From an uncultured Bacilli bacterium (lineage in GTDB: Bacteria; Bacillota_I; Bacilli_A; RFN20; CAG-826), in the NCBI GenBank assembly GCA_944349595.1, contig CALVNF010000002.1, forward strand, positions 4,386 to 68,385: 64,000 bases of DNA, in the 5' to 3' direction. The translations under genes were made by a program, and so were the position numbers. Positions 1 through 19,875 of this stretch are shown here, one piece after another. Each line of letters starts with the position of its first letter. Positions within the stretch are counted from its first letter, which is position 1. The notes beneath the pieces are model-generated. The model did no database searches. It saw only the letters and a list, made by a program, of their open reading frames with translations, and was not told the origin of the DNA.

Positions 1-2847
1 CTAATCGATACTTTTAGCAAAATTAGAAGCAGAGGGCTCACCAAAGAAATATATGTGCCTAGAAAAGAACAACAAGACTGTATTAATGCATTAAAGAGAT
101 ATTTTGATAAACATCCTACTGGCGGTAGGTTCCTTTTAAACTGCAAGATGAGGTTTGGTAAGTCTTATACCACATATAAATATTGTGAAGAAGCTAATCT
201 TAGGAAAATTCTTATTCTTACTTTTATTCCTGCTGTTGAGTCTTCTTGGAAAGATGATTTAACACACATTAAAACTGAATATTTGTATTTAACGGACGAA
301 AATTTAAGACAGCCTCTTTTTCAATTATATTCTATAGATAAGCCTTATGTACTCTTTTTGTCGTTGCAGAACATGTTGGGCAAAGATAGAAATAACAATG
401 ATGTAAAAGATAAAATTAAGAAGTTAAAAGACGAACATTTTGATTTAGTAATATTAGATGAATATCACTTCGGTGCTTGGAATCAAAGAACTCAAGAAAA
501 ATTAGAGGATTTTGATCCTGAATATCAAAAAGAGTTAAGTAAGACAAAAGATGTAATTGATAAATTCGGTATTAAGACTGATAAAATTATTTGTTTATCT
601 GGTACTCCGTTTAAAGCTATTGCTAGGGGCGAATTTATTGAGGAGAATACTTTTACTTATTCGTATTTTGATGAGCAGAAGAACAAATATCCAAACGACG
701 ATATTACTCATCCTAACCCTCAATATGCTCAATTTCCAGATATGAAGATATTTGGTTATAACATGTCGGCTTTATTTGGCAATTTAACAGCCCAGGTATT
801 TTCTGATGATAAGATATTAGGAAAAAAATACTTTTCTTTGAATCGCTTCTTTGAGGTCAGAAAAGATAGCAGCGACACCGAACCTTATACATTTGTTTAT
901 GAAAAAGAAATCAAAAAATGGCTTGATATCATAAAAGGTCGTTCTGATTTTGGTCGTAATTTTCCATATTCTAAACAAGAAATGCTAGATAACAACAAGC
1001 ATACTTTATGGCTTATGCCTACAGTAAATTGTTGCATTGCAATGAGTTTGTTACTTGAAAAAGACGAATATTTTAACAAATATCAAATTATTAATCTCTC
1101 TTCTCCTGAAGTAGGTTCAGGTGTTGATGCTTATGATTTTTTGCTAGAAAACATTAATAAGGCTAATAACATAAATAAACTAGGCAGCATTGCATTAACA
1201 GTTAATAAATTAACAACAGGTGTAACCGTTAAAGATTGGTTTAGCGTCTTTGTACTAAAAGATTTAGCGTCACCTGAACAATATTTCCAATCTATATTTA
1301 GAATTCAAACTCCACTTGTAATAGATAGAGAAATAAAAAAGAAGGTTGGATATGTTTATGATTTTAACATTGATAGAGCCTCAGCCTTACTTCTAAGGTA
1401 TGCAGAAGAAACAGCTGATCAATCAGTTACTAAACTCCAAATTGCTAAGCTCATAGTTAAATATTTACCTATCTTTATGAATGGTGATATGGATAAGCCT
1501 ATCGAATATGAAGTGTTTTATCAATTAGCTCAATTTGGTGACCAAAGCAATGTACCTTTATCTAGAAAGATTACAAATCTTGAGGCTACTACGCATGCTT
1601 TAAATGAAGAAACTATGGCAGCAATGCTTAACGATCCTGAAGTCAGCGACATAATAAAAAGAGTTTTTGCTCACTCTAAATTAACTAAGAGTAAAGATAG
1701 AACAAAGCCTGCAAAGCCTGAACAAGATGGTTTTGAAACTGAAGTGGCGAAAAAAGGTCGAGATCTTGGTTATAGACTAGGGATGGAAGACTCAAAGAAT
1801 TATCTTGATTTAGATGATTCAGATGTTCAAAAAGCTTTCGAAGATAACATTGAAAAATATATCGCTGAAAACATGCCAAAAAAATACAGAGATAAAGAAA
1901 AAGTCTGGTATTCAAACGGATTTAAAAAAGGCTATGAAAGCGGAGTTAATGTTCCTATTAAGAAACTAAATTGTGGCTATGATGATGGCAAGAAATTTGT
2001 TGACGAGGTTAAGAAAAAATTCGGTGAAAATATTCATTATACAAGAGAGACTAGACCTCAAATAATGAACTTTACTAATCCATATTTAAATAACATCAAT
2101 CATATACCACTACAATATAGAGGAATGCTATATAAAAGATGGTACATTGAATCATTTGTGAGAGCAGTGAAAGATTGTTTGAGACCAGTTATAAAAGACG
2201 AAGATGGTGGAACAACAATAGATGATGCTGATAATGTGCTAAGACATATTTTAGCGAGGTTAGTTGAATTCTTATATATCAGTGTTTATAGAGAGACAAC
2301 ATTTAATGAAATATTTCAAAACGCTGACCCTAATGTATTCCTTGAGGCTGTTGGCATCCAAAAGAAGGAGTTTGAAACTTTAAACAAATATCGTGTCTTT
2401 GAAGAAAATACTCTTAATAACTATATTCATGAATTCTTTGTTAATGAATCTATTGGTAAAGACTTAACATCAAATGGGAAAGAGTCAGATCAATACCGAA
2501 ATAGTTTTGGCTGGTTTGGCTTTAATAAAATTGAGCAAGAAGTCAAAGATTATGTTAACGAAACAAATGCTAAAGCTGTTCAAGATGAAATTGCTTCTTA
2601 TAGTAATATGGTTAGCGCTGATGCCGATGCTGATTTAGATATTGAAGAAACACCACAAAGCGAAACTGCTAACGATGAGGATAGTTTAGAAGAGAGGATA
2701 ATATCTTTACTGAAAATTAACACTAAAGGTATGAGTTCTAAAAAGATAGCTAAAGCTTTGAGCGTTTCTAAAAAAGAAGTTAACAAAGTTCTTTATGAAA
2801 GCAAGAATAAATTCACTCAAGACTTTTTGTCATGGAAATTAAAGTGA
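1..2847 (+). CDS. Superfamily-2 DEAD/DEAH-type helicase family protein, 5' end outside the window, C-terminal winged-helix-like tail
   Basis: Frame 1 is open from position 1, and the listed GTG at 55 is only an internal alternative start. Motifs: Walker-A-like RFGKSYT, motif II VILDEYHFG (DExH), motif III LSGTP, motif VI-like QSIFRIQT. The C-terminus (KKIAKALSVSKKEVNKVL) looks like a wHTH. The ORF ends in TGA. Confidence 0.6.
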   Translation, partial: LIDTFSKIRSRGLTKEIYVPRKEQQDCINALKRYFDKHPTGGRFLLNCKMRFGKSYTTYKYCEEANLRKILILTFIPAVESSWKDDLTHIKTEYLYLTDENLRQPLFQLYSIDKPYVLFLSLQNMLGKDRNNNDVKDKIKKLKDEHFDLVILDEYHFGAWNQRTQEKLEDFDPEYQKELSKTKDVIDKFGIKTDKIICLSGTPFKAIARGEFIEENTFTYSYFDEQKNKYPNDDITHPNPQYAQFPDMKIFGYNMSALFGNLTAQVFSDDKILGKKYFSLNRFFEVRKDSSDTEPYTFVYEKEIKKWLDIIKGRSDFGRNFPYSKQEMLDNNKHTLWLMPTVNCCIAMSLLLEKDEYFNKYQIINLSSPEVGSGVDAYDFLLENINKANNINKLGSIALTVNKLTTGVTVKDWFSVFVLKDLASPEQYFQSIFRIQTPLVIDREIKKKVGYVYDFNIDRASALLLRYAEETADQSVTKLQIAKLIVKYLPIFMNGDMDKPIEYEVFYQLAQFGDQSNVPLSRKITNLEATTHALNEETMAAMLNDPEVSDIIKRVFAHSKLTKSKDRTKPAKPEQDGFETEVAKKGRDLGYRLGMEDSKNYLDLDDSDVQKAFEDNIEKYIAENMPKKYRDKEKVWYSNGFKKGYESGVNVPIKKLNCGYDDGKKFVDEVKKKFGENIHYTRETRPQIMNFTNPYLNNINHIPLQYRGMLYKRWYIESFVRAVKDCLRPVIKDEDGGTTIDDADNVLRHILARLVEFLYISVYRETTFNEIFQNADPNVFLEAVGIQKKEFETLNKYRVFEENTLNNYIHEFFVNESIGKDLTSNGKESDQYRNSFGWFGFNKIEQEVKDYVNETNAKAVQDEIASYSNMVSADADADLDIEETPQSETANDEDSLEERIISLLKINTKGMSSKKIAKALSVSKKEVNKVLYESKNKFTQDFLSWKLK

Positions 2848-2860
2848 GGGCAACTAACCT

Positions 2861-3154
2861 ATGGAAACTAAATCACAAGGAGTAATCTATATACTTACCA
2901 ACCCATCATTCCCTGATTACGTTAAGATTGGATAAGCTGACGATGTTCAAAAGCGTCTGAAGGAACTAAACAGGAGCGAGTGTATTCCTTTTGCTTTTAG
3001 GCTTTATGCTTATTATGAAGTTCCTAGAAGACTCACTGATATGAAGCTCCATCAAATGATAGATAAGTTAAATCCTAATCTTAGATCTATTGAGGAATTT
3101 GATGGTAAGACTAGAAAAAGTGAATATTCTAACGCTTCGGAGCTACCAGTTTAA
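2861..3154 (+). pseudogene. T5orf172 (GIY-YIG-like / MUG113-type) domain gene interrupted by an in-frame TAA
   Basis: ATG at 2861 gives METKSQGVIYILTNPSFPDYVKIG, then TAA at 2933-2935. The same frame continues as ADDVQKRLKELNRSECIPFAFRLYAYYEVPRRL...ELPV to a stop at 3152-3154. Together this is the canonical T5orf172 core (VIYILTN...KIGxxxxxxxRLxxLN). Confidence 0.6.
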
Positions 3155-3585
3155 AGCTAGAGAGCCATACCCTATTTAACTAATAATTTTGACCTTGAGA
3201 GCCATCTTTAAATTATATCCCCTAAAATATTTTTACTTGAGTTTTCATTGAGTAATTTCAACCATAATTCAGAAAAATATTATCTATAATATTTTTTAAG
3301 ACACACAATTATTCAATTTTTAAAACTTTAAATTCATATAAAAAAACATTATTTTTAGTATTATTTAATTAAGATTGATGAGTTTGGAACAAAAACGAAA
3401 ATTAATGATACATTTTTACCAACAATAGATTCTTTTAAAATTCAAAATGTAAGTAAAGACTTAAAACTAACAGAAAGAAAAAATAAATTAATAAGTGATA
3501 TCATCAGTTAAGCTAAAATTGTAATTTACAGATATTTAAAACATAATATATTATGTTTTTAATTAATATTTTTATAATAACGTGT

Positions 3586-3613
3586 TAATATTATTAAAAT
3601 TTTAATAATATTA
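3586..3613. promoter_or_regulatory. 28-bp perfect A/T palindrome (TAATATTATTAAAATTTTAATAATATTA) just upstream of the RBS of the 3631 gene; candidate operator
   Basis: Positions 3586-3613 are exactly self-complementary, centred between 3599 and 3600. An RBS (GGAG) lies at 3618-3621 and the ATG at 3631. Confidence 0.4.
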
Positions 3614-3630
3614 TATTGGAGTTTGTTATT

Positions 3631-5886
3631 ATGAAAAAAAGTAATGTATATTATGTATATAATCAATGTAAAGTTTGTAAAAATAGAAAAGAAAGAATTC
3701 AAATAATAAATGATTATCTTAAAGCTGGAAAAATTACAAAAAAAGAAGCGGAAGATATAAAAAGAAAATTAATTAAAAAACCAACTTCATATCTTGTTTA
3801 TAGCATTTTAAAAAAGTATTCATCTGTAAATAATAGATTAACAAGAGAAGATATTATTAAAAAAATTGAAGAGGATTATGGTGTTAAAATTGAATCAAAA
3901 GATACAATAAGTGCAGCCATAGAAGAAATTGGTTATATAAATTATGTTGATTTAAAAGAAAATACTTTTGATAAGTTTAATGAATCTACAATTGTAAAAG
4001 CGGGTAAAACTGGATTCTTTTTATTAGATAGTGAAAAATTATCTCTTGGAGAGATCGCTTTTATTGTAAATGCAATTTTATCATCGGTATCGCTAACTAA
4101 AAAAGAAAGTGAAGAATTCATCAAAAAAATATTAAAATTAGGAGAAAGCGATATTACTTTTCATGATTTATTAAATGTAAAAGAAAATTATAGTTATAAT
4201 TCATCACTAATTAAAATAGAAACTAATTCAACACTAGATAAATTATCATTATTAACTAGAGCTAAAGAAAATAAAAAAGATATAACTTTTGAAACAGGTG
4301 TAGGATTAATTAATAATGAAGTAGATTTAAAAAATGCATTTAATAACAAGAAAACAACAATTACTATGACTCCTTATTATATATTTTCTAAAAATGGTAA
4401 GGAAATTGTTATTGGCTCTGTTGCGAATACTAATTTTAATTATTTAAAACCAGAGAGTAATTTGAATCATAAATATCTAATATATTTATGTTATGTTCAA
4501 AACATGGAAAACATTCAAATATTAGATACTTCAACACCATTTAAAATTTATAACAAAATAAATTTTGATATGTTTATTTCTAAATTTATAAATGGAGAAA
4601 CATTTATAAAAGAAGGAACATTTCATCCAGCACAACTTAATATTATAAGGTATATATGTCTTGTAAAATCTATTTATGGACTTAAAATTTTAATTGATTT
4701 TTTTAACTTACCATTTAAAACTCAAAAACAAAAAAAGAAAATTAATATTAGTGAAGACATAAAAAATAGTTCTGTGATATCTTTAAGTAAAAGTGAACAA
4801 AATAAGCTTATAAAAGAAAGTAGTAAATATCGATATACGATCCGATTTAATACTGATTACTTTAAGATGGAATCATTTATTTCTTATATTAAAATGTATC
4901 AACTTGATTATTTAATTTTTAAAAAAGATATTTCAGGACCATTGAGAATTATTTATTCAAAAGAAGAATATCGCAAAGAACTAATTAATAAATATAATAT
5001 AGAAAATGAAAGAAATTATAAATTAACTTATATAGATAATTTAACTAAACTTCTTGCAATTAAATATAAAATTGGAGAAAAAAGTGATGAATTAAAACAT
5101 TATTTAATTAGAAATAAACTAATTGAAGAACCTCTTATTAACGGCAAATTAAAAATAGCAGAAAATTATTATTATGATAATTTTAAAAATAAATCAAATA
5201 AAGATATTTTTGAAAACTTAGATAATGATCAAATAATATATTTATATAGACATTTAAATTTTAAAGAATTAACTTATCTTGAATTAAATTTAGAATTTTT
5301 AAATGGTTTAAATATTCTTCAAAATTTAGATTTGAATTTAGATATAGATATTAACAATACATTTATAATTGGAGAAGAAAATAATAAATTAATTACATGT
5401 AATTTAGATAATATATGGTATCAAGGAATTTCTGGAGTTGGTAAAAGTACTTTTATTTCATCTCTAATAACAGATTTAATTAATTTAGATAATAATTATA
5501 AGTTTGTTATATATAATGATAAAGGTCTTTATGAATATGATGTAGATAAAGAATATTTATTAAAACCATTATTAAAAAATGCTGAAGAATTAATTAATTT
5601 TTTAAGTTCTTATCAAATAAATGATAATGAAAAGTTAGTTTTAATATTAGATGGAGCTGATTTTGATTTAACTTATCAATTAGGAATTAATAAATTAATA
5701 AATAAAATATTAACTGAAAAGAAGATTATATTAATATTAACAAGTCAAGGACAAGAATTTTTAACTAAAGAAAATTCTAATTTATTTAATATCAAAATCA
5801 ATAAAACAGAAAACAAAGAAAACGGCATAATTATAAATAAAGATAGTTATACTTATTCTATTATAAGATTTGAAGTATTTAGATAA
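3631..5886 (+). CDS. Large hypothetical protein: wHTH-like N-terminus, LRR-like repeats, C-terminal NB-ARC/STAND-like P-loop NTPase
   Basis: RBS TTGGAG precedes the ATG at 3631. The N-terminal segment LTREDIIKKIEEDYGVKIESKDTISAAIEEIGYI fits an HTH_11/DeoR-type wHTH. Residues around 520-580 (LNFKELTYLELNLEFLNGLNILQNLDLNLDIDINN) are LxxLxLxxN-like. Walker A is GISGVGKST and Walker B is LVLILDGADFD. Composition is extreme (K/N/I/Y rich, GC well below the housekeeping genes). Confidence 0.55.
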   Translation: MKKSNVYYVYNQCKVCKNRKERIQIINDYLKAGKITKKEAEDIKRKLIKKPTSYLVYSILKKYSSVNNRLTREDIIKKIEEDYGVKIESKDTISAAIEEIGYINYVDLKENTFDKFNESTIVKAGKTGFFLLDSEKLSLGEIAFIVNAILSSVSLTKKESEEFIKKILKLGESDITFHDLLNVKENYSYNSSLIKIETNSTLDKLSLLTRAKENKKDITFETGVGLINNEVDLKNAFNNKKTTITMTPYYIFSKNGKEIVIGSVANTNFNYLKPESNLNHKYLIYLCYVQNMENIQILDTSTPFKIYNKINFDMFISKFINGETFIKEGTFHPAQLNIIRYICLVKSIYGLKILIDFFNLPFKTQKQKKKINISEDIKNSSVISLSKSEQNKLIKESSKYRYTIRFNTDYFKMESFISYIKMYQLDYLIFKKDISGPLRIIYSKEEYRKELINKYNIENERNYKLTYIDNLTKLLAIKYKIGEKSDELKHYLIRNKLIEEPLINGKLKIAENYYYDNFKNKSNKDIFENLDNDQIIYLYRHLNFKELTYLELNLEFLNGLNILQNLDLNLDIDINNTFIIGEENNKLITCNLDNIWYQGISGVGKSTFISSLITDLINLDNNYKFVIYNDKGLYEYDVDKEYLLKPLLKNAEELINFLSSYQINDNEKLVLILDGADFDLTYQLGINKLINKILTEKKIILILTSQGQEFLTKENSNLFNIKINKTENKENGIIINKDSYTYSIIRFEVFR

Positions 5887-7574: not shown

Positions 7575-7682
7575 ATAAATTATAAAAAAACATTAATTTA
7601 AATTATTTTAATTAATAAAAATAACTTTATATATATTTGCTCATAAAGAGTAAAATAATTATATATAAAGGTGGTCTTTAAT

Positions 7683-9992
7683 ATGCCAAAAAAATTTAAA
7701 AGTTTAAGTTTTATAATAATAGCTCTATTTTTAAGTTTATCTAGTATTTCTTCTTGCAATAATACTTATCAAAATACGACATCAGTTGTTCAATATGTTT
7801 TAGATATTGAAAATGGAGAAGAAGTTCAATTAAAAGTTAATGACACTCTTCAATTAAATATATCAAGTCAAAATTTAACCGAAACAATAATTTATACTTC
7901 ATCAGATCCAAGTGTTGTAAGTGTCAGTAATACTGGTTTAATAACTGCCTTAAGTGAAGGAGAAAGTTTTATTACTGCAAGTGCTAATAATACATCAGAT
8001 ACAATTAAAGTTCTTGTTAGTAAAAATACAACAATTTTAAATCCTAGTATTGAAATTCTTGATGGAGATGAGCTTAGTTTAGAAATTGAACAAACTTATA
8101 AATTAAATGTTAAAACCGAAAACATAACTGAAGATTTAGTATTTTCTTCTCAAAATGAATTTATTGCAAAAGTTGATAATTCTGGTTTAATTACTGCCAT
8201 AAGTAAGGGTGAAACATTAATTGAAGTAAAAGCTAACAATGTTAAAGATCTAATAAAAATTATTGTAAAAGAAAAAACAATAACTCCTACACCTGTTTTG
8301 GAAATATTAACCCCAGATAATAGTGAATTAGAAGTTGAAAGTAGTTTACAACTTAATTTGAAAACTGAAAATTTAACTGAAGATGTTACTTATTCATCTT
8401 CTAATAATGAAATTGCGACAATTTCAAATACTGGTTTAATAAGTGGCATTTCAAAAGGCAGCGTCACAATTAGTGCTTCAGCCAATGGAATTAGTGATTC
8501 AATAAATATAATTGTTAAAGAAAAAGAAGTTCCTCCAAGTTTAGTTATTTTAAATGGAGAAGAAATAACATTAAATTTAGGTGATACTTTACAATTAAAT
8601 GTTAGTTTAGAAAATATTGAAGGTTCAATATTATATGAAAGTAATAATTCTAATGTTGCAAGTGTTAATCAAAGTGGATTAATTAGTGCAATTAAAGAAG
8701 GTGAAGCAATAATAACAGCTTCTATTGATGAAGTTAAAGATAGTATTAAAGTTACAGTAGTTCCAAATGAAGATGGTAGTGTTCAATATTATGAACATAT
8801 CTTTAATAAAGATGATTTTAATGGAGGATCTACAAGTGCAGGAAGCTTTTCTTCAAATGGTTTAACTTGGAATTATGATGCTTTTAATTATTTAGGTCAA
8901 GATTATGAAGGAATTCAAATTGGATCTAATAGTAAACCTCATAAAACTCCATGGAATATAGTTACTCAATTTAATGGTGAAGTGACAGTTTTATCTTATG
9001 AATTAATCATTAAAACAAACTCACCTGCTAGATATGATGTAACAATGGATAACTATAGCCATGGAGAGAATTTACCAAAAGAAAATATTGCAAAACTTTG
9101 GGGAGAAAATGATATATCAATTGATACAACCTCATTTAAATTATCGTTATCTAATCAAACAAAAGCCATTTATTTATATAGTGTTAGTTTAAAAGTATTT
9201 GTTCCAAGTGATGTAGATTTAAATTTAAAGAAACCTGAAATTGATTTAGTTGCAGCAAAACCTGGAGAAGGAGTTGTTCCAAATGCAAACTATACATTAA
9301 CTAGTAAAGAAGATTATTATAAAGATATTGATTTTGAAGCAGATTCAACAATATTAAAAAATGAATTACATTCTTTAATTTCAAATATGACAAAAATTAA
9401 TTATGGAACAGTTTCTAATACAATTATTTATACCGATGAAAGTATTAAAAAACCAGGTGTTTTATATGGTATGTTTGATGGAGATGAATTAAGTGCAAGC
9501 TATAATGGAACATGGAATAAAGAACATGTCTGGCCATGTTCTTTAATGAAAGAAAACGGAAAAGATCCTCGACCATCAGATTCAACTAAAAATCATGCAA
9601 CTGATTTATTTAATTTAAGAGCATGTTGTCAAACAACAAATGGTTTACATGGAAATAAATTTTATGATAATACAGATTCAAGTAATACATTTTTTCCAAA
9701 TGTAGCAAATAATGGTAGTGTATTACATAAATTTGAAGGTGATCATAGAGGTGATGTTGCAAGAATTTTATTTTATATGGCTTTAAGATATGACTTTTTA
9801 AGTATTGTTGAAGATATTAATAATGCAACAGATACTCAAATTGGAAAACTTTCTGTTTTATTAAAGTGGAATGAATTAGATCCAGTAGATGATTTTGAAA
9901 TTCAAAGAAATAATAGAATTTATGAATTTCAAGGAAACAGAAATCCATTTATTGATTATCCTGAATTAGTTGACAAATTATATTCAATTTAA
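7683..9992 (+). CDS. Surface lipoprotein nuclease: signal peptide + lipobox, 4x Big_2 Ig-like repeats, C-terminal Endonuclease-I (EndA/Dns) domain
   Basis: RBS AAAGGTGG then ATG at 7683. Lipobox SISSC. Four roughly 95-aa repeats of the form VxSVSNTGLITAxSEGExxITASANNxSDxIKVxV (Big_2). The C-terminus carries WNKEHVWP, NLRAC...N, GDVARILFYMALRY and GNRNPFIDYPEL, which are Endonuclease_1 family hallmarks. Confidence 0.85.
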   Translation: MPKKFKSLSFIIIALFLSLSSISSCNNTYQNTTSVVQYVLDIENGEEVQLKVNDTLQLNISSQNLTETIIYTSSDPSVVSVSNTGLITALSEGESFITASANNTSDTIKVLVSKNTTILNPSIEILDGDELSLEIEQTYKLNVKTENITEDLVFSSQNEFIAKVDNSGLITAISKGETLIEVKANNVKDLIKIIVKEKTITPTPVLEILTPDNSELEVESSLQLNLKTENLTEDVTYSSSNNEIATISNTGLISGISKGSVTISASANGISDSINIIVKEKEVPPSLVILNGEEITLNLGDTLQLNVSLENIEGSILYESNNSNVASVNQSGLISAIKEGEAIITASIDEVKDSIKVTVVPNEDGSVQYYEHIFNKDDFNGGSTSAGSFSSNGLTWNYDAFNYLGQDYEGIQIGSNSKPHKTPWNIVTQFNGEVTVLSYELIIKTNSPARYDVTMDNYSHGENLPKENIAKLWGENDISIDTTSFKLSLSNQTKAIYLYSVSLKVFVPSDVDLNLKKPEIDLVAAKPGEGVVPNANYTLTSKEDYYKDIDFEADSTILKNELHSLISNMTKINYGTVSNTIIYTDESIKKPGVLYGMFDGDELSASYNGTWNKEHVWPCSLMKENGKDPRPSDSTKNHATDLFNLRACCQTTNGLHGNKFYDNTDSSNTFFPNVANNGSVLHKFEGDHRGDVARILFYMALRYDFLSIVEDINNATDTQIGKLSVLLKWNELDPVDDFEIQRNNRIYEFQGNRNPFIDYPELVDKLYSI

Positions 9993-14274: not shown

Positions 14275-14949
14275 ATGAAAAAAATTGACGATAAATATTT
14301 TATTAAAGATAAAAAAGTAAACTATAATCCTTCAATTGAACAAGTGCTTACAAATGATGAAGTTATTCTTTGGAAAGGAAAACCAAGGAAATTATCTTTT
14401 ATTTTATCTATCATTTTCAAATTTTTACCATTTGTTATTATATGGCTAGCAATTGATATATCTTTAATTGTAATGATGTCTAGTTTTTTCTCTGAGATAC
14501 CATTGCCTGGAATTATTTTTTTGATAATCTTTTTTATCTTACATTTATTACCAGTTTGGATATGGATTTCTTCTATAATTACTGCCTCAAGAAGACAAAA
14601 ATTAGAAGAATATGCCTTTACTGGAAGTAGAATTATTATTAAAACTGGTTTTATTGGTGCAAATATATCTAGTATTAATTATTCATCAATTTCTAGTGTA
14701 AATTTAAAGATTGGAATTATTGAAAGATTATGTAAAGTTGGAGATATTTATATTGTTGCGGATAATAAAAAATATATTTTAGAAGATATTAAAGATCCAT
14801 ATTTTATTTATGAAAAATTACAAAAAATAGCTAATGATATAAAATCAGATATAATTTATCCAAATAATTATCGACCTAGTGAAAATAATGGCTATAAAAC
14901 AAGTTATAATCCAAAAGAAGTTGATAAAATTATTAAAAAAGATAAATAA
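14275..14949 (+). CDS. Membrane protein with a bacterial PH-like (YdbS/YdbT, DUF304-type) domain
   Basis: DEVILWKGKP motif followed by two TM helices, the DUF304-like arrangement. Confidence 0.45.
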   Translation: MKKIDDKYFIKDKKVNYNPSIEQVLTNDEVILWKGKPRKLSFILSIIFKFLPFVIIWLAIDISLIVMMSSFFSEIPLPGIIFLIIFFILHLLPVWIWISSIITASRRQKLEEYAFTGSRIIIKTGFIGANISSINYSSISSVNLKIGIIERLCKVGDIYIVADNKKYILEDIKDPYFIYEKLQKIANDIKSDIIYPNNYRPSENNGYKTSYNPKEVDKIIKKDK

Positions 14950-14954
14950 ATTAT

Positions 14955-17831
14955 ATGAGTGAAACTTATAATGATATTAAAAATGCTCTTAATAAAGCAT
15001 TTATAGATTATAACTTAGATTCTGTCGACTCATTATGTCCATCTTTTTTATATAATAATAAAGAAGAAAATAAAAAAATAATTTCAACTTTAAAAGAAGA
15101 ATTTAAAAAATGTGAAGAATTTTATATTTCCGTTGCATTTATTACATATTCTGGACTTCAAATTTTAAAAGAAACATTAAAAGAAATTAATGATAAAGGT
15201 ATTAAAGGAAAAATTTTAACAAGCGATTATTTATGTTTTACTGAACCAAAAGCTTTGAAATTTTTGCAAGATAATTTTAATAATATTGAAGTTAAAATGT
15301 ATAAATCATCTGATCTTGATGGTTTTCACACAAAAGGTTATTTTTTTAAACAAAAAGATGATATCTATAAAATTATTATCGGATCTAGTAACATTACTGC
15401 AAAAGCTTTAACAGTTAATCAAGAATGGAATACTGAATTAATTTCCACAAAAGATGGAAAATTAATAAAAGAATTATTTGATCAATTTAATTTATTATGG
15501 AATAAATCGACCGATTTAAAAGATTATATAAATACATATACTAAAATTTATGAAGAAGCCAATAAAGAAAAAGTTATATTAAATGTTGATAATATAATTA
15601 ATCAAAAAATAGAACCAAATTCAATGCAAATAGAGTTTAGTCAAAAATTTAAACAACTTATTGAAAATGATGGTAAAAGAGGTTTATTAATTTCTTCTAC
15701 TGGAACTGGAAAAACATACGCAAGTGCATTTGCTTTAAAAAATGTTAACGCTAAAAAAGTTCTTTTCTTAGCTCATAGAACAACATTATTGATTCAAGCT
15801 ATATCTGCTTATCAGCGAATTTTTCCTAATTCATCTTTTTCAATTCTAACTGGAGATAAAACTTATATTAAAAATTTAAATGATGTTTCATATTTTGATA
15901 ATAATGAATATGATTTTGTATTTTCAACTTGTGAGATGATGTCTAAAAAAATTGACGAATTTATTAACGCTAAAAAATTTGATTATATTATTATTGATGA
16001 AGTTCATAGAGCGGGTTCAAATACATATCAAAAAATATTGAATTATTTTAAACCTAAATTTATTCTTGGAATGACTGCAACACCTGAAAGAACCAATGAT
16101 GAAAGTTTGATTTTTAATTTATTTGATCATAATGTTATTTTTGAAATTAGATTAGAAGATGCCCTTGATTATGGTTTGTTATGTCCTTTTCATTACTATG
16201 GAATAACTGATTTAAAAGGAATTAATGATGAAACATATGACAAACAAGACTTTAATAAATTATTTAGTAATGAAAGAGTTGAATATATTATTAAACAAAG
16301 CAATTTTTATGGATATAGCGGTGATAGATTAAGAGGTTTAATTTTTGTCTCAAGAAAAGATGAGGGAAGAAGACTTGAAACTTTATTGAATCAAAAAAAT
16401 TATAAAACTAAATTTTTAGATGGCTCTTTTTCATCAAGCGAGAGAGAAAAATACTTTAGATTACTTGAAGAAACTAATAAAAATAATGAATATTTAGATT
16501 TTATTATTTCTGTTGATATTCTTAATGAAGGCGTTGATATTCCAGAAGTTAATCAAATAATAATGTTAAGACCAACTCAATCAAGCATTATTTTTATTCA
16601 ACAACTTGGTAGAGGTCTAAGAAAATGGAAGAATAAAGATTTTGTAACAATTATTGACTTTATTGGAAATTATGATTCAAATTATATGATAGCTAAAGCA
16701 TTTTCAGAATCTGGTAATAAAGAACAAGCTAGATTAGTTGTTACATCTTCGTTTATTCCTGGAATTTCTACAATTGAATTTGACGAAATTGCGCAAAAGA
16801 AAATATTTGAATCAATTAAGAAAACTAATTTTGATACTATGTCGAACTTTAAAATCGAATATATGCATTTAAAAAATAGAATAAATAGAATTCCAAATTT
16901 GACTGATTTTTATGAATTTACTTATTTTGATCCATATAGAATTATTGAAAAATTTAAATCTTATCAAGATTTTCTTTTAAAAATTGAAAAAGATTTAAAT
17001 TATTCACAAAAAGAACTTGAATATTATCGATTTATTTCAAAAATTATATCTTCTGGATTAAGATTAGATGAAGTTAATGCTCTTGAATATCTAATTAAAA
17101 ATAAGAATTTAACTAAATATTTAGATGAAAAATTAATTTCTTTAAATAAAAAATTAACAATTATTAATGAATTTAATTGTAGTTTTTATGGAAAAAACAA
17201 TGATTCTTTAAGTTTAATTAATAGTTCATTAAACATTAGTGAAGATTTTGATGAAATGTTAAAAAATTTTTCATTTTTAGATAATATTAATAACTTAATA
17301 TTAATGTCTAAATTAAGGAATAATAAATTTTATGGAAAAAAATATAAAAATTCTGATTTATGTTTAAATTCTTTATATTCAAGAGAAGATATTTCAATTA
17401 TTTTTAATTGTAAAGTGAATAGAGCTAGTACAATTTATGGTTATCAATATTTAAAAGAAGAAAATGTATTTCCTATTTTTATTAATTATATAAAAACTCC
17501 AGAAATTTCTGATGCCACTAGATATGAAGATATGTTTATAAATAGACAAAAGTTTCAATGGAATTCAAGACACGGTGAATATATTGAATCAAAAAACATG
17601 CAAACTTTAATTAATGCTAAAAATAATAATACAAAAATTTATTTATTTGTTAGAAAATCAATTGATGAAAATAGCGGAAGTAACAAACATTATTTTTTAG
17701 GTGAAATGAGTGTGATAGATTTTAAAGAAATTATGAGAAATAATTATAAATATGTTTTGTTTAATTTTGCTTTAAGCGATGAGGTAAGAAGTGATTTATA
17801 TGAATATTTTAAAAAGGATATAAATAATTAA
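14955..17831 (+). CDS. PLD-family (HKD) nuclease / SF2 DEAD-DEAH helicase fusion protein with a large uncharacterised C-terminal domain
   Basis: HKD motif GFHTKGYFFKQKDDIYKIIIGSSNIT (HxKx4Dx6GSxN). Helicase motif I STGTGKTY, motif II IIIDEVHRAG, motif III GMTATPER, motif VI QQLGRGLR. About 320 aa follow with no recognisable motif. Confidence 0.75.
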   Translation: MSETYNDIKNALNKAFIDYNLDSVDSLCPSFLYNNKEENKKIISTLKEEFKKCEEFYISVAFITYSGLQILKETLKEINDKGIKGKILTSDYLCFTEPKALKFLQDNFNNIEVKMYKSSDLDGFHTKGYFFKQKDDIYKIIIGSSNITAKALTVNQEWNTELISTKDGKLIKELFDQFNLLWNKSTDLKDYINTYTKIYEEANKEKVILNVDNIINQKIEPNSMQIEFSQKFKQLIENDGKRGLLISSTGTGKTYASAFALKNVNAKKVLFLAHRTTLLIQAISAYQRIFPNSSFSILTGDKTYIKNLNDVSYFDNNEYDFVFSTCEMMSKKIDEFINAKKFDYIIIDEVHRAGSNTYQKILNYFKPKFILGMTATPERTNDESLIFNLFDHNVIFEIRLEDALDYGLLCPFHYYGITDLKGINDETYDKQDFNKLFSNERVEYIIKQSNFYGYSGDRLRGLIFVSRKDEGRRLETLLNQKNYKTKFLDGSFSSSEREKYFRLLEETNKNNEYLDFIISVDILNEGVDIPEVNQIIMLRPTQSSIIFIQQLGRGLRKWKNKDFVTIIDFIGNYDSNYMIAKAFSESGNKEQARLVVTSSFIPGISTIEFDEIAQKKIFESIKKTNFDTMSNFKIEYMHLKNRINRIPNLTDFYEFTYFDPYRIIEKFKSYQDFLLKIEKDLNYSQKELEYYRFISKIISSGLRLDEVNALEYLIKNKNLTKYLDEKLISLNKKLTIINEFNCSFYGKNNDSLSLINSSLNISEDFDEMLKNFSFLDNINNLILMSKLRNNKFYGKKYKNSDLCLNSLYSREDISIIFNCKVNRASTIYGYQYLKEENVFPIFINYIKTPEISDATRYEDMFINRQKFQWNSRHGEYIESKNMQTLINAKNNNTKIYLFVRKSIDENSGSNKHYFLGEMSVIDFKEIMRNNYKYVLFNFALSDEVRSDLYEYFKKDINN

Positions 17832-17832
17832 T

Positions 17833-18222
17833 ATGAAAATAGTAAATGTAGTTGCGGCAATAATAGTTAAAAATGATTTAATTTTTATAACTCAAAGAGG
17901 TTATGGGGAATTTAAAGACGGTTGGGAATTTCCAGGTGGAAAAATAGAAGAAAACGAAACTCCTGAAAATGCCTTAAAAAGAGAGATTAAAGAAGAATTA
18001 AATGCTGATATTGAAGTTGACAATTTCTTGATGGACATTGATTATGATTATCCAAACTTTCATCTACATATGAAAGTTTATTTTTGTCATTTATTAAAAC
18101 CTCATATTGAATTATTAGAACATGAAAATGCATTATGGGTTAAAAAAGAAGATTTAAAAAATATTAATTTTTTACCAGCTGATAAATTAATTATTAAAAA
18201 TATATTGAATTTAAAAATTTAA
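17833..18222 (+). CDS. NUDIX hydrolase (MutT-like)
   Basis: Nudix box GGKIEENETPENALKREIKEELN. The start lies 1 nt after the stop of the PLD-helicase gene. Confidence 0.8.
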   Translation: MKIVNVVAAIIVKNDLIFITQRGYGEFKDGWEFPGGKIEENETPENALKREIKEELNADIEVDNFLMDIDYDYPNFHLHMKVYFCHLLKPHIELLEHENALWVKKEDLKNINFLPADKLIIKNILNLKI

Positions 18223-18918: not shown

Positions 18919-19875
18919 ATGTGTACAGCAATAAAATTAAAATATAAAGATAATTATATTTTTGGTAGAAATTTAGATTTAGATTATCATTTTAATGAAA
19001 AATTAATACTATTAAATAAAAATTACAAATTCACTTTTAAATTTTTAAGTGAACAAAAATCTAATTATAATATGATGGGAATTGGAGCTTTAGTAAATAA
19101 TTATCCATTATTTTCTGAAGCAATGAATGAAAAAGGATTATGTATTGCAGGATTAAATTATCCACAAAACGCTTATTATTTTAATGAAATAAATAAAGAT
19201 AAAATTAATTTAGCACCTTATGAATTAATAATTTATTTATTAAATAATTGTTCAAATATTAACGAAGTAAAAGAAGTATGTAAAAATATTCAATTAATAA
19301 ATAAACCATTTTTAGATAATATGCCATTAAGTTATTTACATTTTTTAATTAGTGATAAAGATGGCTCGATTGTTTTAGAACCTGATAAAGATGGATTAAA
19401 AATATATGATAATATATTTGAAGTATTAACAAATAATCCTCCATTTACATATCATTTAGAAAATATTAAGTTATATTTAAATTTAACAAATAAATATTAT
19501 TCAAATAATTTAAATACAAATTATGATTTAAAACCATTTTGCATTGGAAGCAATGCTACTGGTTTACCAGGAGATTCTTCAAGTCCTTCAAGATTTATTA
19601 GAAGTGTTTATTTAAAAGAAAATTTATTAAAGAATATTTATGATAAAGACAATTTAATTAATGGGTTGTTCCATATATTTTCGAAAGTTAGCGTTATTAA
19701 AGGTGAAGCTTTAACAAGCGATAATAAAAGTGAAATTACAATTTATACATCAATTTTAGATCCAAAAAATATGACTTATTATATAAAAACATATGATAAA
19801 TTAGATTGTTTTGTTTGTAAATTTGATGATTATTTATCAAAATTTAGTGATATTTTAGCTTTAAATTTTAATTAA
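18919..19875 (+). CDS. Choloylglycine hydrolase / penicillin V acylase family (Ntn) amidase
   Basis: N-terminal MCTAIKL with the Cys2 nucleophile, and FGRNLD at the CBAH family positions. Confidence 0.7.
   Translation: MCTAIKLKYKDNYIFGRNLDLDYHFNEKLILLNKNYKFTFKFLSEQKSNYNMMGIGALVNNYPLFSEAMNEKGLCIAGLNYPQNAYYFNEINKDKINLAPYELIIYLLNNCSNINEVKEVCKNIQLINKPFLDNMPLSYLHFLISDKDGSIVLEPDKDGLKIYDNIFEVLTNNPPFTYHLENIKLYLNLTNKYYSNNLNTNYDLKPFCIGSNATGLPGDSSSPSRFIRSVYLKENLLKNIYDKDNLINGLFHIFSKVSVIKGEALTSDNKSEITIYTSILDPKNMTYYIKTYDKLDCFVCKFDDYLSKFSDILALNFN

Follow-up and report, generated by a model that had tools for sequence, protein, structure and literature searches.

What a large nuclease-helicase protein and a small nucleotide hydrolase might do side by side is the question raised by two adjacent genes in an uncultured Bacilli bacterium. 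The genes lie in a stretch of 64,000 nucleotides (nt) of contig CALVNF010000002.1 (assembly GCA_944349595.1), referred to here as the window. According to the list of open reading frames (ORFs) of the window, ORF1 (14955..17831, forward strand) encodes 958 amino acids and ORF2 (17833..18222, forward strand) encodes a NUDIX hydrolase of 129 amino acids. A reading of the DNA made without database searches, the sequence-only reading, had proposed a solitary and poorly characterised nuclease-helicase fusion that forms a two-gene defence module with its NUDIX neighbor. Our analysis places ORF1 with a known enzyme, the Staphylococcus aureus restriction endonuclease SauUSI, and the explanation of the locus that we favor on balance is a SauUSI-type enzyme accompanied by a NUDIX protein that would clear 5-substituted dCTP and so guard the host genome.

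Identity of the large protein

ORF1 matches SauUSI over its full length. Residues 1-952 align with residues 1-951 of SauUSI (SAUSA300_2431, 953 amino acids; Protein Data Bank (PDB) entry 7CLG, chain A) in one alignment with E=3.7e-184, and the PADLOC model mREase_IV (PDLC03658), which describes Type IV methyl-directed restriction enzymes, covers ORF1 at E=2.6e-186 over about positions 1-952 of 953. The crystal structure of SauUSI comprises a PLD nuclease (residues 1-191), a DExH ATPase (221-617), a coupler (618-805) and a target-recognition domain of SRA fold (806-953) (PMC7913695), and the same four domains are found in the same order in ORF1. The PLD-family (HKD) nuclease domain occupies residues 58-182 (15126..15500, forward strand; Pfam PLDc_2, E=5e-10) with H125, K127, S144 and N146 as predicted catalytic residues. 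It is followed by the superfamily 2 DExH translocase/ATPase core at residues 218-556 (15606..16622, forward strand; ResIII 218-379, E=1.4e-37; Helicase_C 460-556, E=2.1e-15) and by a DUF3427 region at residues 693-952 (17031..17810, forward strand; Pfam DUF3427, E=5.8e-51) that represents the distal part of the coupler and an SRA-like reader domain. The sequence-only reading had recognized an HKD motif and DEAH-type helicase motifs in the 958 amino acid ORF, and all of the motifs that it quoted are present: HTKGYFFKQKD from residue 125, GSSN at 143, GTGKT (Walker A) at 250, DEVH at 348, TATPER at 374 and QQLGRGLR at 549. The roughly 320 C-terminal residues that it called unassignable are the coupler and reader domain, and its guess that they might be of the DUF3427 type was correct.

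Residues expected to be important for function are conserved. H125 and K127 align to H119 and K121 of SauUSI. Across 21 diverse homologues there is no variation at H125, K127, G143, S144 or N146, nor at the residues of the ATPase motifs. The 5-methylcytosine (5mC) pocket of SauUSI was modeled, there being no DNA-bound structure, from Y831, F841, I842 and W868, with D858 touching the base and M829 in the role of a wedge (PMC7913695). Five of these six residues are identical in ORF1 (Y830, F842, I843, D859 and W869, equivalent to SauUSI Y831, F841, I842, D858 and W868) while the sixth position differs, the wedge residue M829 being replaced by Y828. An ORF of 958 stop-free codons at 22% GC with a full-length match to 7CLG is far beyond chance, all the more as over 7,900 database proteins match it at E<=1e-10; nearly all of the best 120 homologues have the same architecture. 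SauUSI is a distant relative, the homologues of the window protein at comparable scores being 41-55% identical to ORF1, and the hosts differ as well, an uncultured bacterium with 22% GC at this locus as opposed to S. aureus. ORF1 shows every feature of the SauUSI family that a sequence can reveal, namely nuclease, ATPase, reader domain and end-to-end collinearity, and its predicted membership in the family is close to certain. By homology, it would act as a Type IV restriction endonuclease that depends on DNA modification.

The assignment to a PLD nuclease/SF2 (superfamily 2) ATPase fusion of restriction-like, antiviral character thus made in the sequence-only reading agrees with the full-length SauUSI match, whereas the description of the protein as poorly characterised does not, as the biochemistry, crystal structure and 5mC reader of SauUSI have been published (PMC3141236, PMC7913695). 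The likeness to type III Res, DISARM DrmC and NgoFVII noted there holds at the level of domains and fails over the full length. REase_III matches ORF1 at E=7.7e-5 over residues 344-379 and DrmC at E=5.4e-4 over residues 72-175 (both PADLOC), type I models also give partial and weak matches, and RE_NgoFVII aligns to residues 46-172 at E=1.4e-4, which is under the Pfam cutoff. We rejected a type III, DISARM or NgoFVII identity for ORF1 given these partial, weak matches and the lack of an adjacent methyltransferase. A match to a characterised restriction enzyme with a neighboring methyltransferase had been named as an outcome that would speak against a new defence module; a characterised enzyme was indeed found, but it is of Type IV and does not need a methyltransferase.

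SauUSI cleaves DNA containing 5mC or 5-hydroxymethylcytosine (5hmC) with a preference for S5mCNGS and requires ATP or dATP (PMC3141236), and the single SauUSI polypeptide is enough for activity in vitro and in Escherichia coli (PMC3874153). If ORF1 behaves like SauUSI, its SRA-like domain would flip out and read 5mC or 5hmC in incoming DNA. This recognition would turn on the central DExH ATPase, which would translocate along the DNA, and the PLD (HKD) nuclease would then cut the DNA in a dimer. A methyltransferase would be unneeded, since the DNA of the host itself would lack the modification that is targeted. The main practical use of this new SauUSI homologue is as a warning that the organism may restrict Dcm-methylated DNA.

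Linkage between SauUSI-family and NUDIX genes

The stop codon of ORF1 (17829-17831) and the ATG of ORF2 (17833) are separated by one nucleotide, as read directly from the junction TAA-T-ATG (17829..17835, forward strand), in agreement with the sequence-only reading and compatible with translational coupling. The linkage had been published before. Xu et al. described in 2011 that sauUSI is linked to a MutT/NUDIX gene that is conserved, SAUSA300_2432, reported at least 60 SauUSI-like genes linked in this way, and left the function of the NUDIX protein for later examination (PMC3141236). The SauUSI family and its NUDIX linkage are therefore known, the latter since 2011, and ORF1 and ORF2 are a further example from an uncultured low-GC bacterium. 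The S. aureus gene (SAUSA300_2432, Sae2385 in strain Newman) resembles ORF2 as a small MutT-like gene next to a SauUSI gene, a comparison based on gene context only, and it lies upstream of sauUSI while ORF2 lies downstream of ORF1.

To measure the linkage, we scanned for SauUSI homologues in one genome per species and analyzed 80 loci (38-48% identity), the best 80 of about 600 matches. NUDIX genes in these loci were detected with a hidden Markov model (HMM) built from NUDIX homologues chosen regardless of genomic context. A NUDIX gene adjoins the SauUSI homologue in 71 of the 80 loci and in 62 of the 66 loci (94%) that extend at least 500 nt on both sides, which bears out the co-occurrence that the sequence-only reading had suggested checking. 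Within the 71 loci, the NUDIX gene is located downstream on the same strand in 58, upstream in 10 and in convergent orientation in 3. Upstream positions occur in Methanobrevibacter, Bacillales and one Bacteroidaceae bin. NUDIX genes in downstream position often share 4 nt with the SauUSI gene, and such a 4-nt overlap was seen in 12 or more species besides that of the window. Judged by record titles, linked loci are found in Lachnospiraceae, Erysipelotrichaceae, Mollicutes, Veillonella, Succinatimonas, Bacteroidaceae, Bacillales and the archaeal genus Methanobrevibacter. Conservation in such distant lineages and in several gene orders speaks for selection and against synteny by inheritance. Very probably, the NUDIX gene is a selected partner of SauUSI, not a chance neighbor, and on the reality of the partnership the sequence-only reading was right. 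Fortuitous adjacency, which was to be suspected if NUDIX relatives also occurred without the helicase, can be set aside even though such relatives do occur.

Two further observations concern the neighbors of SauUSI-family genes. A divergent SauUSI-like subfamily with proteins of 946-1168 amino acids is also followed by a NUDIX gene (L106, L116, L144, L151, L159 and L178). Its members match the family HMM at E values of about 1e-127 to 1e-144 from positions of about 31-46 to 924-958, and the linkage therefore reaches past close SauUSI relatives. In addition, four loci have a gene for a genuine C5-cytosine DNA methyltransferase (matches to Pfam DNA_methylase at E values from 1e-60 to 1e-82) directly upstream of the SauUSI-family gene and in divergent orientation to it, all on the reverse strand (L123:1659-2780, L157:891-2060, L162:1077-2060 and L068:2751-4148). 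The last of these is among the few loci without a NUDIX gene. A writer of 5mC beside a nuclease presumed to depend on 5mC implies that the sequence specificities of the two do not overlap or that the reader is altered.

The linkage looks different from the side of the NUDIX gene. A NUDIX-centered scan of metagenomes gave 80 loci, again the best 80 of about 600 matches, and a SauUSI-family gene with an intact reader-domain end lies within 300 nt of the NUDIX gene in 35 of them, or in 24 of the 45 loci (53%) with at least 1.5 kb on both sides. This asymmetry, with SauUSI nearly always accompanied by NUDIX and NUDIX by SauUSI in about half of cases, fits an accessory or safeguard role of the NUDIX protein. 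Individual loci illustrate the range of arrangements: the P0200 NUDIX gene is convergent with a SauUSI homologue, the P0127 gene overlaps one by 4 nt and the P0145 gene is solitary among housekeeping neighbors. In the NUDIX loci that lack SauUSI, a Vsr gene is located beside or near the NUDIX gene in six and a C5-methyltransferase nearby in two. Other neighbors in such loci are AbiA, AbiEii, Schlafen-like or plain housekeeping genes. As a separate observation, the direct NUDIX neighbor in two loci without SauUSI is a GmrSD-family Type IV enzyme (GmrSD_N and GmrSD_C; L113:3969-6323, forward strand, and L125:6415-8460, reverse strand), which is another nuclease dependent on modified cytosine.

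The most direct view of exchange beside a NUDIX gene comes from P0132, an identical NUDIX protein of 130 amino acids encoded between the same outer flanks in contigs L083 to L087. A SauUSI homologue precedes it in one contig (L084; SauUSI homologue 2030-4981, NUDIX 5001-5393). In the four others it is preceded by Vsr, a MutH-like or EcoO109I-like restriction endonuclease and a C5-cytosine methyltransferase, as in L083 (Vsr 1385-1837, MutH-like endonuclease 1824-3254, C5-methyltransferase 3342-4976). Next to a NUDIX gene that stays in place, a nuclease that depends on 5mC and a system that makes 5mC seem to represent alternative alleles.

Substrate and role of the NUDIX protein

The product of ORF2 matches Pfam NUDIX_4 (E=1.7e-17) and NUDIX (E=2.2e-16) and, judged by its sequence, is a MutT/NudG-like member of the NTP-pyrophosphohydrolase branch. 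A pattern match places the Nudix box, GKIEENETPENALKREIKEELNA, at residues 36-58 (17938..18006, forward strand) with R50, E51, E54 and E55 intact, and these four residues are invariant in 64 SauUSI-adjacent NUDIX proteins. The penultimate glycine of the pattern GX5EX7REUXEEXGU is asparagine in the window protein and aspartate in most of its relatives and in PDB entry 3GWY. A search of the PDB with the single sequence identified 3GWY as the best solved relative (E=1.2e-20). We then ranked PDB entries with a profile of the 64 proteins, which had been picked solely by their adjacency to SauUSI. The highest score was again that of 3GWY (128.9 bits), followed by 5X1X (113.3 bits) and 3HHJ (92.9 bits), with the MutT homologue 7SYC at 85.5-85.9 bits, E. 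coli NudG at 80.9 bits and E. coli MutT at 78.8 bits. The score of 3GWY falls inside the range of the Bacillales SauUSI-adjacent NUDIX proteins while 7SYC and 3HHJ score lower than every SauUSI-adjacent NUDIX protein scored. A literature search on 5X1X, the second-best structure, found no relevant paper.

NudG (Orf135; 2RRK) and MutT (1MUT) share the MutT-like Nudix fold and the size of the window protein; they lie about 50 bits below 3GWY in this ranking. All 64 SauUSI-adjacent proteins carry an aspartate where MutT has the asparagine of FPPAN. The equivalent aspartate of NudG matters for cytosine substrates, and we treat this correspondence as a lead only. Fusions in the NUDIX clade were also considered as a functional clue and were set aside as heterogeneous and uninformative: SIR2_2 is fused in L032:7967-9334, beside a SauUSI homologue, a class-I SAM (S-adenosylmethionine) methyltransferase in L159:5851-6855, and a metallo-beta-lactamase fold in L166:391-1557 and L170:5185-6393. 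Some of these fusions may be read-throughs of ORF calling.

The entry 3GWY is Q5LBB1 of Bacteroides fragilis, which shares the QRG, EE(L/M)D and (A/P)AD motifs with the window protein and was assayed by Nguyen et al. (2016) (PMC5158307). Its kcat/Km values are 6.7e6 M-1 s-1 for 5-methyl-CTP (5-Me-CTP), 4.8e6 M-1 s-1 for 5-methyl-dCTP (5-Me-dCTP), 4.4e6 M-1 s-1 for 5-hydroxymethyl-dCTP (5-hm-dCTP) and 8.5e4 M-1 s-1 for 5-hydroxy-dCTP (5-OH-dCTP); canonical NTPs are used poorly, and the alpha-beta bond is cleaved (PMC5158307). NudG prefers 5-Me-dCTP, with a kcat/Km of 1.3e6 (tabulated in PMC5158307). The substrates 5-Me-dCTP and 5-hm-dCTP are the nucleotide forms of the two bases that SauUSI senses in DNA. 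Taken together, the nearest assayed relative and the gene contexts make it somewhat more probable than its opposite that the SauUSI-linked NUDIX protein acts on 5-substituted dCTP. In the literature searched, we found no paper that joins the SauUSI-linked NUDIX protein to the hydrolysis of 5-methyl- or 5-hydroxymethyl-dCTP.

An activity of this kind suggests a role beside the nuclease. Salvage of degraded foreign methylated DNA, including the fragments that SauUSI itself produces, would give rise to 5-Me-dCTP and 5-hm-dCTP. By hydrolyzing both, the NUDIX protein would keep them from being built into the chromosome and from turning it into a target of SauUSI. Self-protection of the host is a plausible physiological role, which we propose with less confidence than the substrate. 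Classical restriction-modification guards self DNA by adding a mark. A cell with a modification-dependent nuclease would, if the proposal is true, guard itself by destroying the marked precursor instead of marking its DNA. Self-protection explains the asymmetric linkage, and it explains the link to Vsr and C5-methyltransferases, since stray 5-methyl-dCTP would put mutagenic 5mC outside of cognate sites. We put forward more tentatively the broader notion of a '5mC hygiene' enzyme, a self-protection component that destroys the marked precursor and that would also have been recruited by C5-methyltransferase and Vsr cassettes and by GmrSD. The pairing of Dcm and Vsr, in which a small accessory enzyme of a 5mC-related gene limits damage to the host genome, offers an analogy only: Vsr repairs T:G mismatches in DNA whereas the NUDIX protein would intervene at the earlier stage of the nucleotide pool, and the two share some loci.

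Genetic data from S. aureus bear on the division of labor. Monk and coworkers reported in 2012, as data not shown, that deletion of the NUDIX gene does not give the transformable phenotype seen on deletion of sauUSI (PMC3312211). This shows the NUDIX protein to be outside of the cutting machinery, and the proposed self-protection accounts for the lack of an effect on restriction. The description of the pair as a two-gene defence module was overstated in this respect.

Several points weigh against a NUDIX protein devoted to guarding SauUSI-bearing cells. About half of its close relatives occur without SauUSI, many of them amid housekeeping genes, and no phenotype of any kind has been reported for the S. 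aureus deletion. The window protein reaches neither the MutT cutoff (TIGR00586, 90.4 versus 97.9 bits) nor the NudG cutoff (NF007834, 77.8 versus 156 bits) of NCBIfam, and its identities to 3GWY (37.9%), 3HHJ (37.4%) and 5X1X (36.0%) are about equal. The Q5LBB1 gene is solitary in Bacteroides with no SauUSI gene nearby, and orthology by context therefore failed. Both 80-locus surveys are dominated by metagenome-assembled genomes of gut and rumen Bacillota, in which binning and taxonomy are perhaps unreliable. Finally, the full-length match of the window protein to the PADLOC phage defence candidate PDC-S07 (E=1.7e-48) is no evidence of defence because PDC-S07 was found in 99% of 740-odd Enterobacter genomes in a published survey. 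PDC-S07 is a candidate model only and probably captures core MutT/NudG-like genes too, so that PDC-S07 calls by PADLOC should not count as a sign of a defence system.

Other roles for the NUDIX protein can be weighed against the same data. It could form an independent antiviral arm beside the nuclease: the NUDIX protein would destroy the 5-hm-dCTP or other 5-substituted dCTP of cytosine-modifying phages and so starve phage replication, and SauUSI would cut modified DNA that enters. Depletion of nucleotides is a principle of defence established for dCTP deaminase and dGTPase systems, and the listing of the NUDIX family as PDC-S07 and the GmrSD, AbiA, AbiEii or Schlafen-like genes beside some solitary NUDIX genes would fit, as would the finding that Q5LBB1 is as efficient on 5-hm-dCTP as on 5-Me-dCTP (PMC5158307). 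An antiviral arm leaves unexplained, however, both the asymmetry of the linkage and the connection to Vsr and C5-methyltransferases; the near-universal presence of PDC-S07 in Enterobacter suggests a housekeeping gene, many solitary copies lie amid housekeeping genes and no phage phenotype has been reported. We regard it as unlikely. The sequence-only reading had a different idea of immunity, in which a novel PLD-helicase defence protein works with a NUDIX enzyme that processes a signaling nucleotide or is otherwise needed for immunity. It had the domain composition right, and NUDIX enzymes do degrade signaling nucleotides in some other systems. ORF1 is a full-length homologue of SauUSI, though, whose mechanism needs no second messenger, and the NUDIX protein falls on the MutT-like NTP-pyrophosphohydrolase branch. 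One SauUSI polypeptide suffices (PMC3874153) and the NUDIX deletion is without a transformable phenotype in S. aureus (PMC3312211), which leaves this idea very improbable. The pyrophosphate idea that Xu et al. offered for the linked NUDIX protein (PMC3141236) is hardly credible at all, given that the malachite-green ATPase assay of SauUSI read released inorganic phosphate (PMC7913695) and that MutT-type Nudix enzymes hydrolyze NTPs, yielding rather than consuming pyrophosphate (PMC5158307).

A general housekeeping sanitizer of the MutT/NudG type, acting on 8-oxo-dGTP, 2-OH-dATP or CTP, would need no functional tie to SauUSI, and the adjacency would stem from co-transfer or a shared hotspot. 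The near miss of the MutT equivalog cutoff agrees with such a protein, homologues are named '8-oxo-dGTP diphosphatase' in the sources, close relatives occur alone, the P0132 NUDIX gene stays fixed while cassettes swap, the way a gene that anchors a hotspot would, and the S. aureus deletion has no restriction phenotype (PMC3312211). Against it stands the 94% linkage over distant lineages, archaea included, in three gene orders, which is hard to obtain without selection. In the family profile, both E. coli MutT and the MutT homologue rank far under 3GWY and under every SauUSI-adjacent NUDIX protein, the invariant aspartate replaces the MutT asparagine, and the cassettes swapped in at the P0132 site are themselves related to 5mC. 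We consider a general sanitizer distinctly unlikely. Clearance of 5-substituted dCTP in the service of self-protection thus remains the role that we propose. Potentially new are two points that we infer, the connection of the NUDIX protein to 5-substituted dCTP and the alternation of 5mC-dependent and 5mC-making cassettes beside one NUDIX gene. The kinetics of Q5LBB1, the asymmetric linkage and the association with Vsr and C5-methyltransferases combine into a cheaply testable hypothesis on how autoimmunity through the nucleotide pool is avoided.

Surroundings of the pair

The window belongs to a metagenome scaffold of 264 kb (ENA ERZ28614322), and an Rfam scan of it gave no hits. To all appearance the pair is a stable part of the chromosome. 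In metagenome contigs that encode a 98%-identical NUDIX protein, an intact gene for the 958 amino acid protein precedes it at the same site and between the same flanks in eight of the eight places shown. The GC content of about 22% at the locus equals that of its surroundings with no compositional break seen, and no integrase or other mobility gene was seen among the neighbors of the pair. Jackhmmer searches with seed sequences found neither a C5-methyltransferase nor Vsr among the ORFs of the window. A scan for promoters and terminators was uninformative in this AT-rich DNA (65 promoter-like sites versus 64 expected, 0 terminators) and the operon could not be defined from it. The gene directly upstream (14275-14949), which encodes a bPH_2 membrane protein and ends 5 nt before ORF1, was considered as a third component and rejected: a homologue is present in 0 of the 80 SauUSI loci, and the gene is therefore placed outside of the system.

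Two further genes of the window relate to the way of life of the host. About 5 kb upstream of the pair, 7671-9992 (forward strand) encodes a protein of 773 amino acids that begins like a signal peptide or lipoprotein, continues with several Big_2 repeats and has an Endonuclease_I domain at its C-terminus. The protein is probably a DNase, secreted or on the surface, that would supply salvaged, possibly methylated nucleotides; this circumstantial observation would suit a host that scavenges DNA from outside. Two genes downstream of the pair, 18919-19875 (forward strand) encodes a member of the choloylglycine (bile-salt) hydrolase family (CBAH, E=1.2e-81), which suggests a gut-associated host and matches the gut or rumen origin of most of the related loci.

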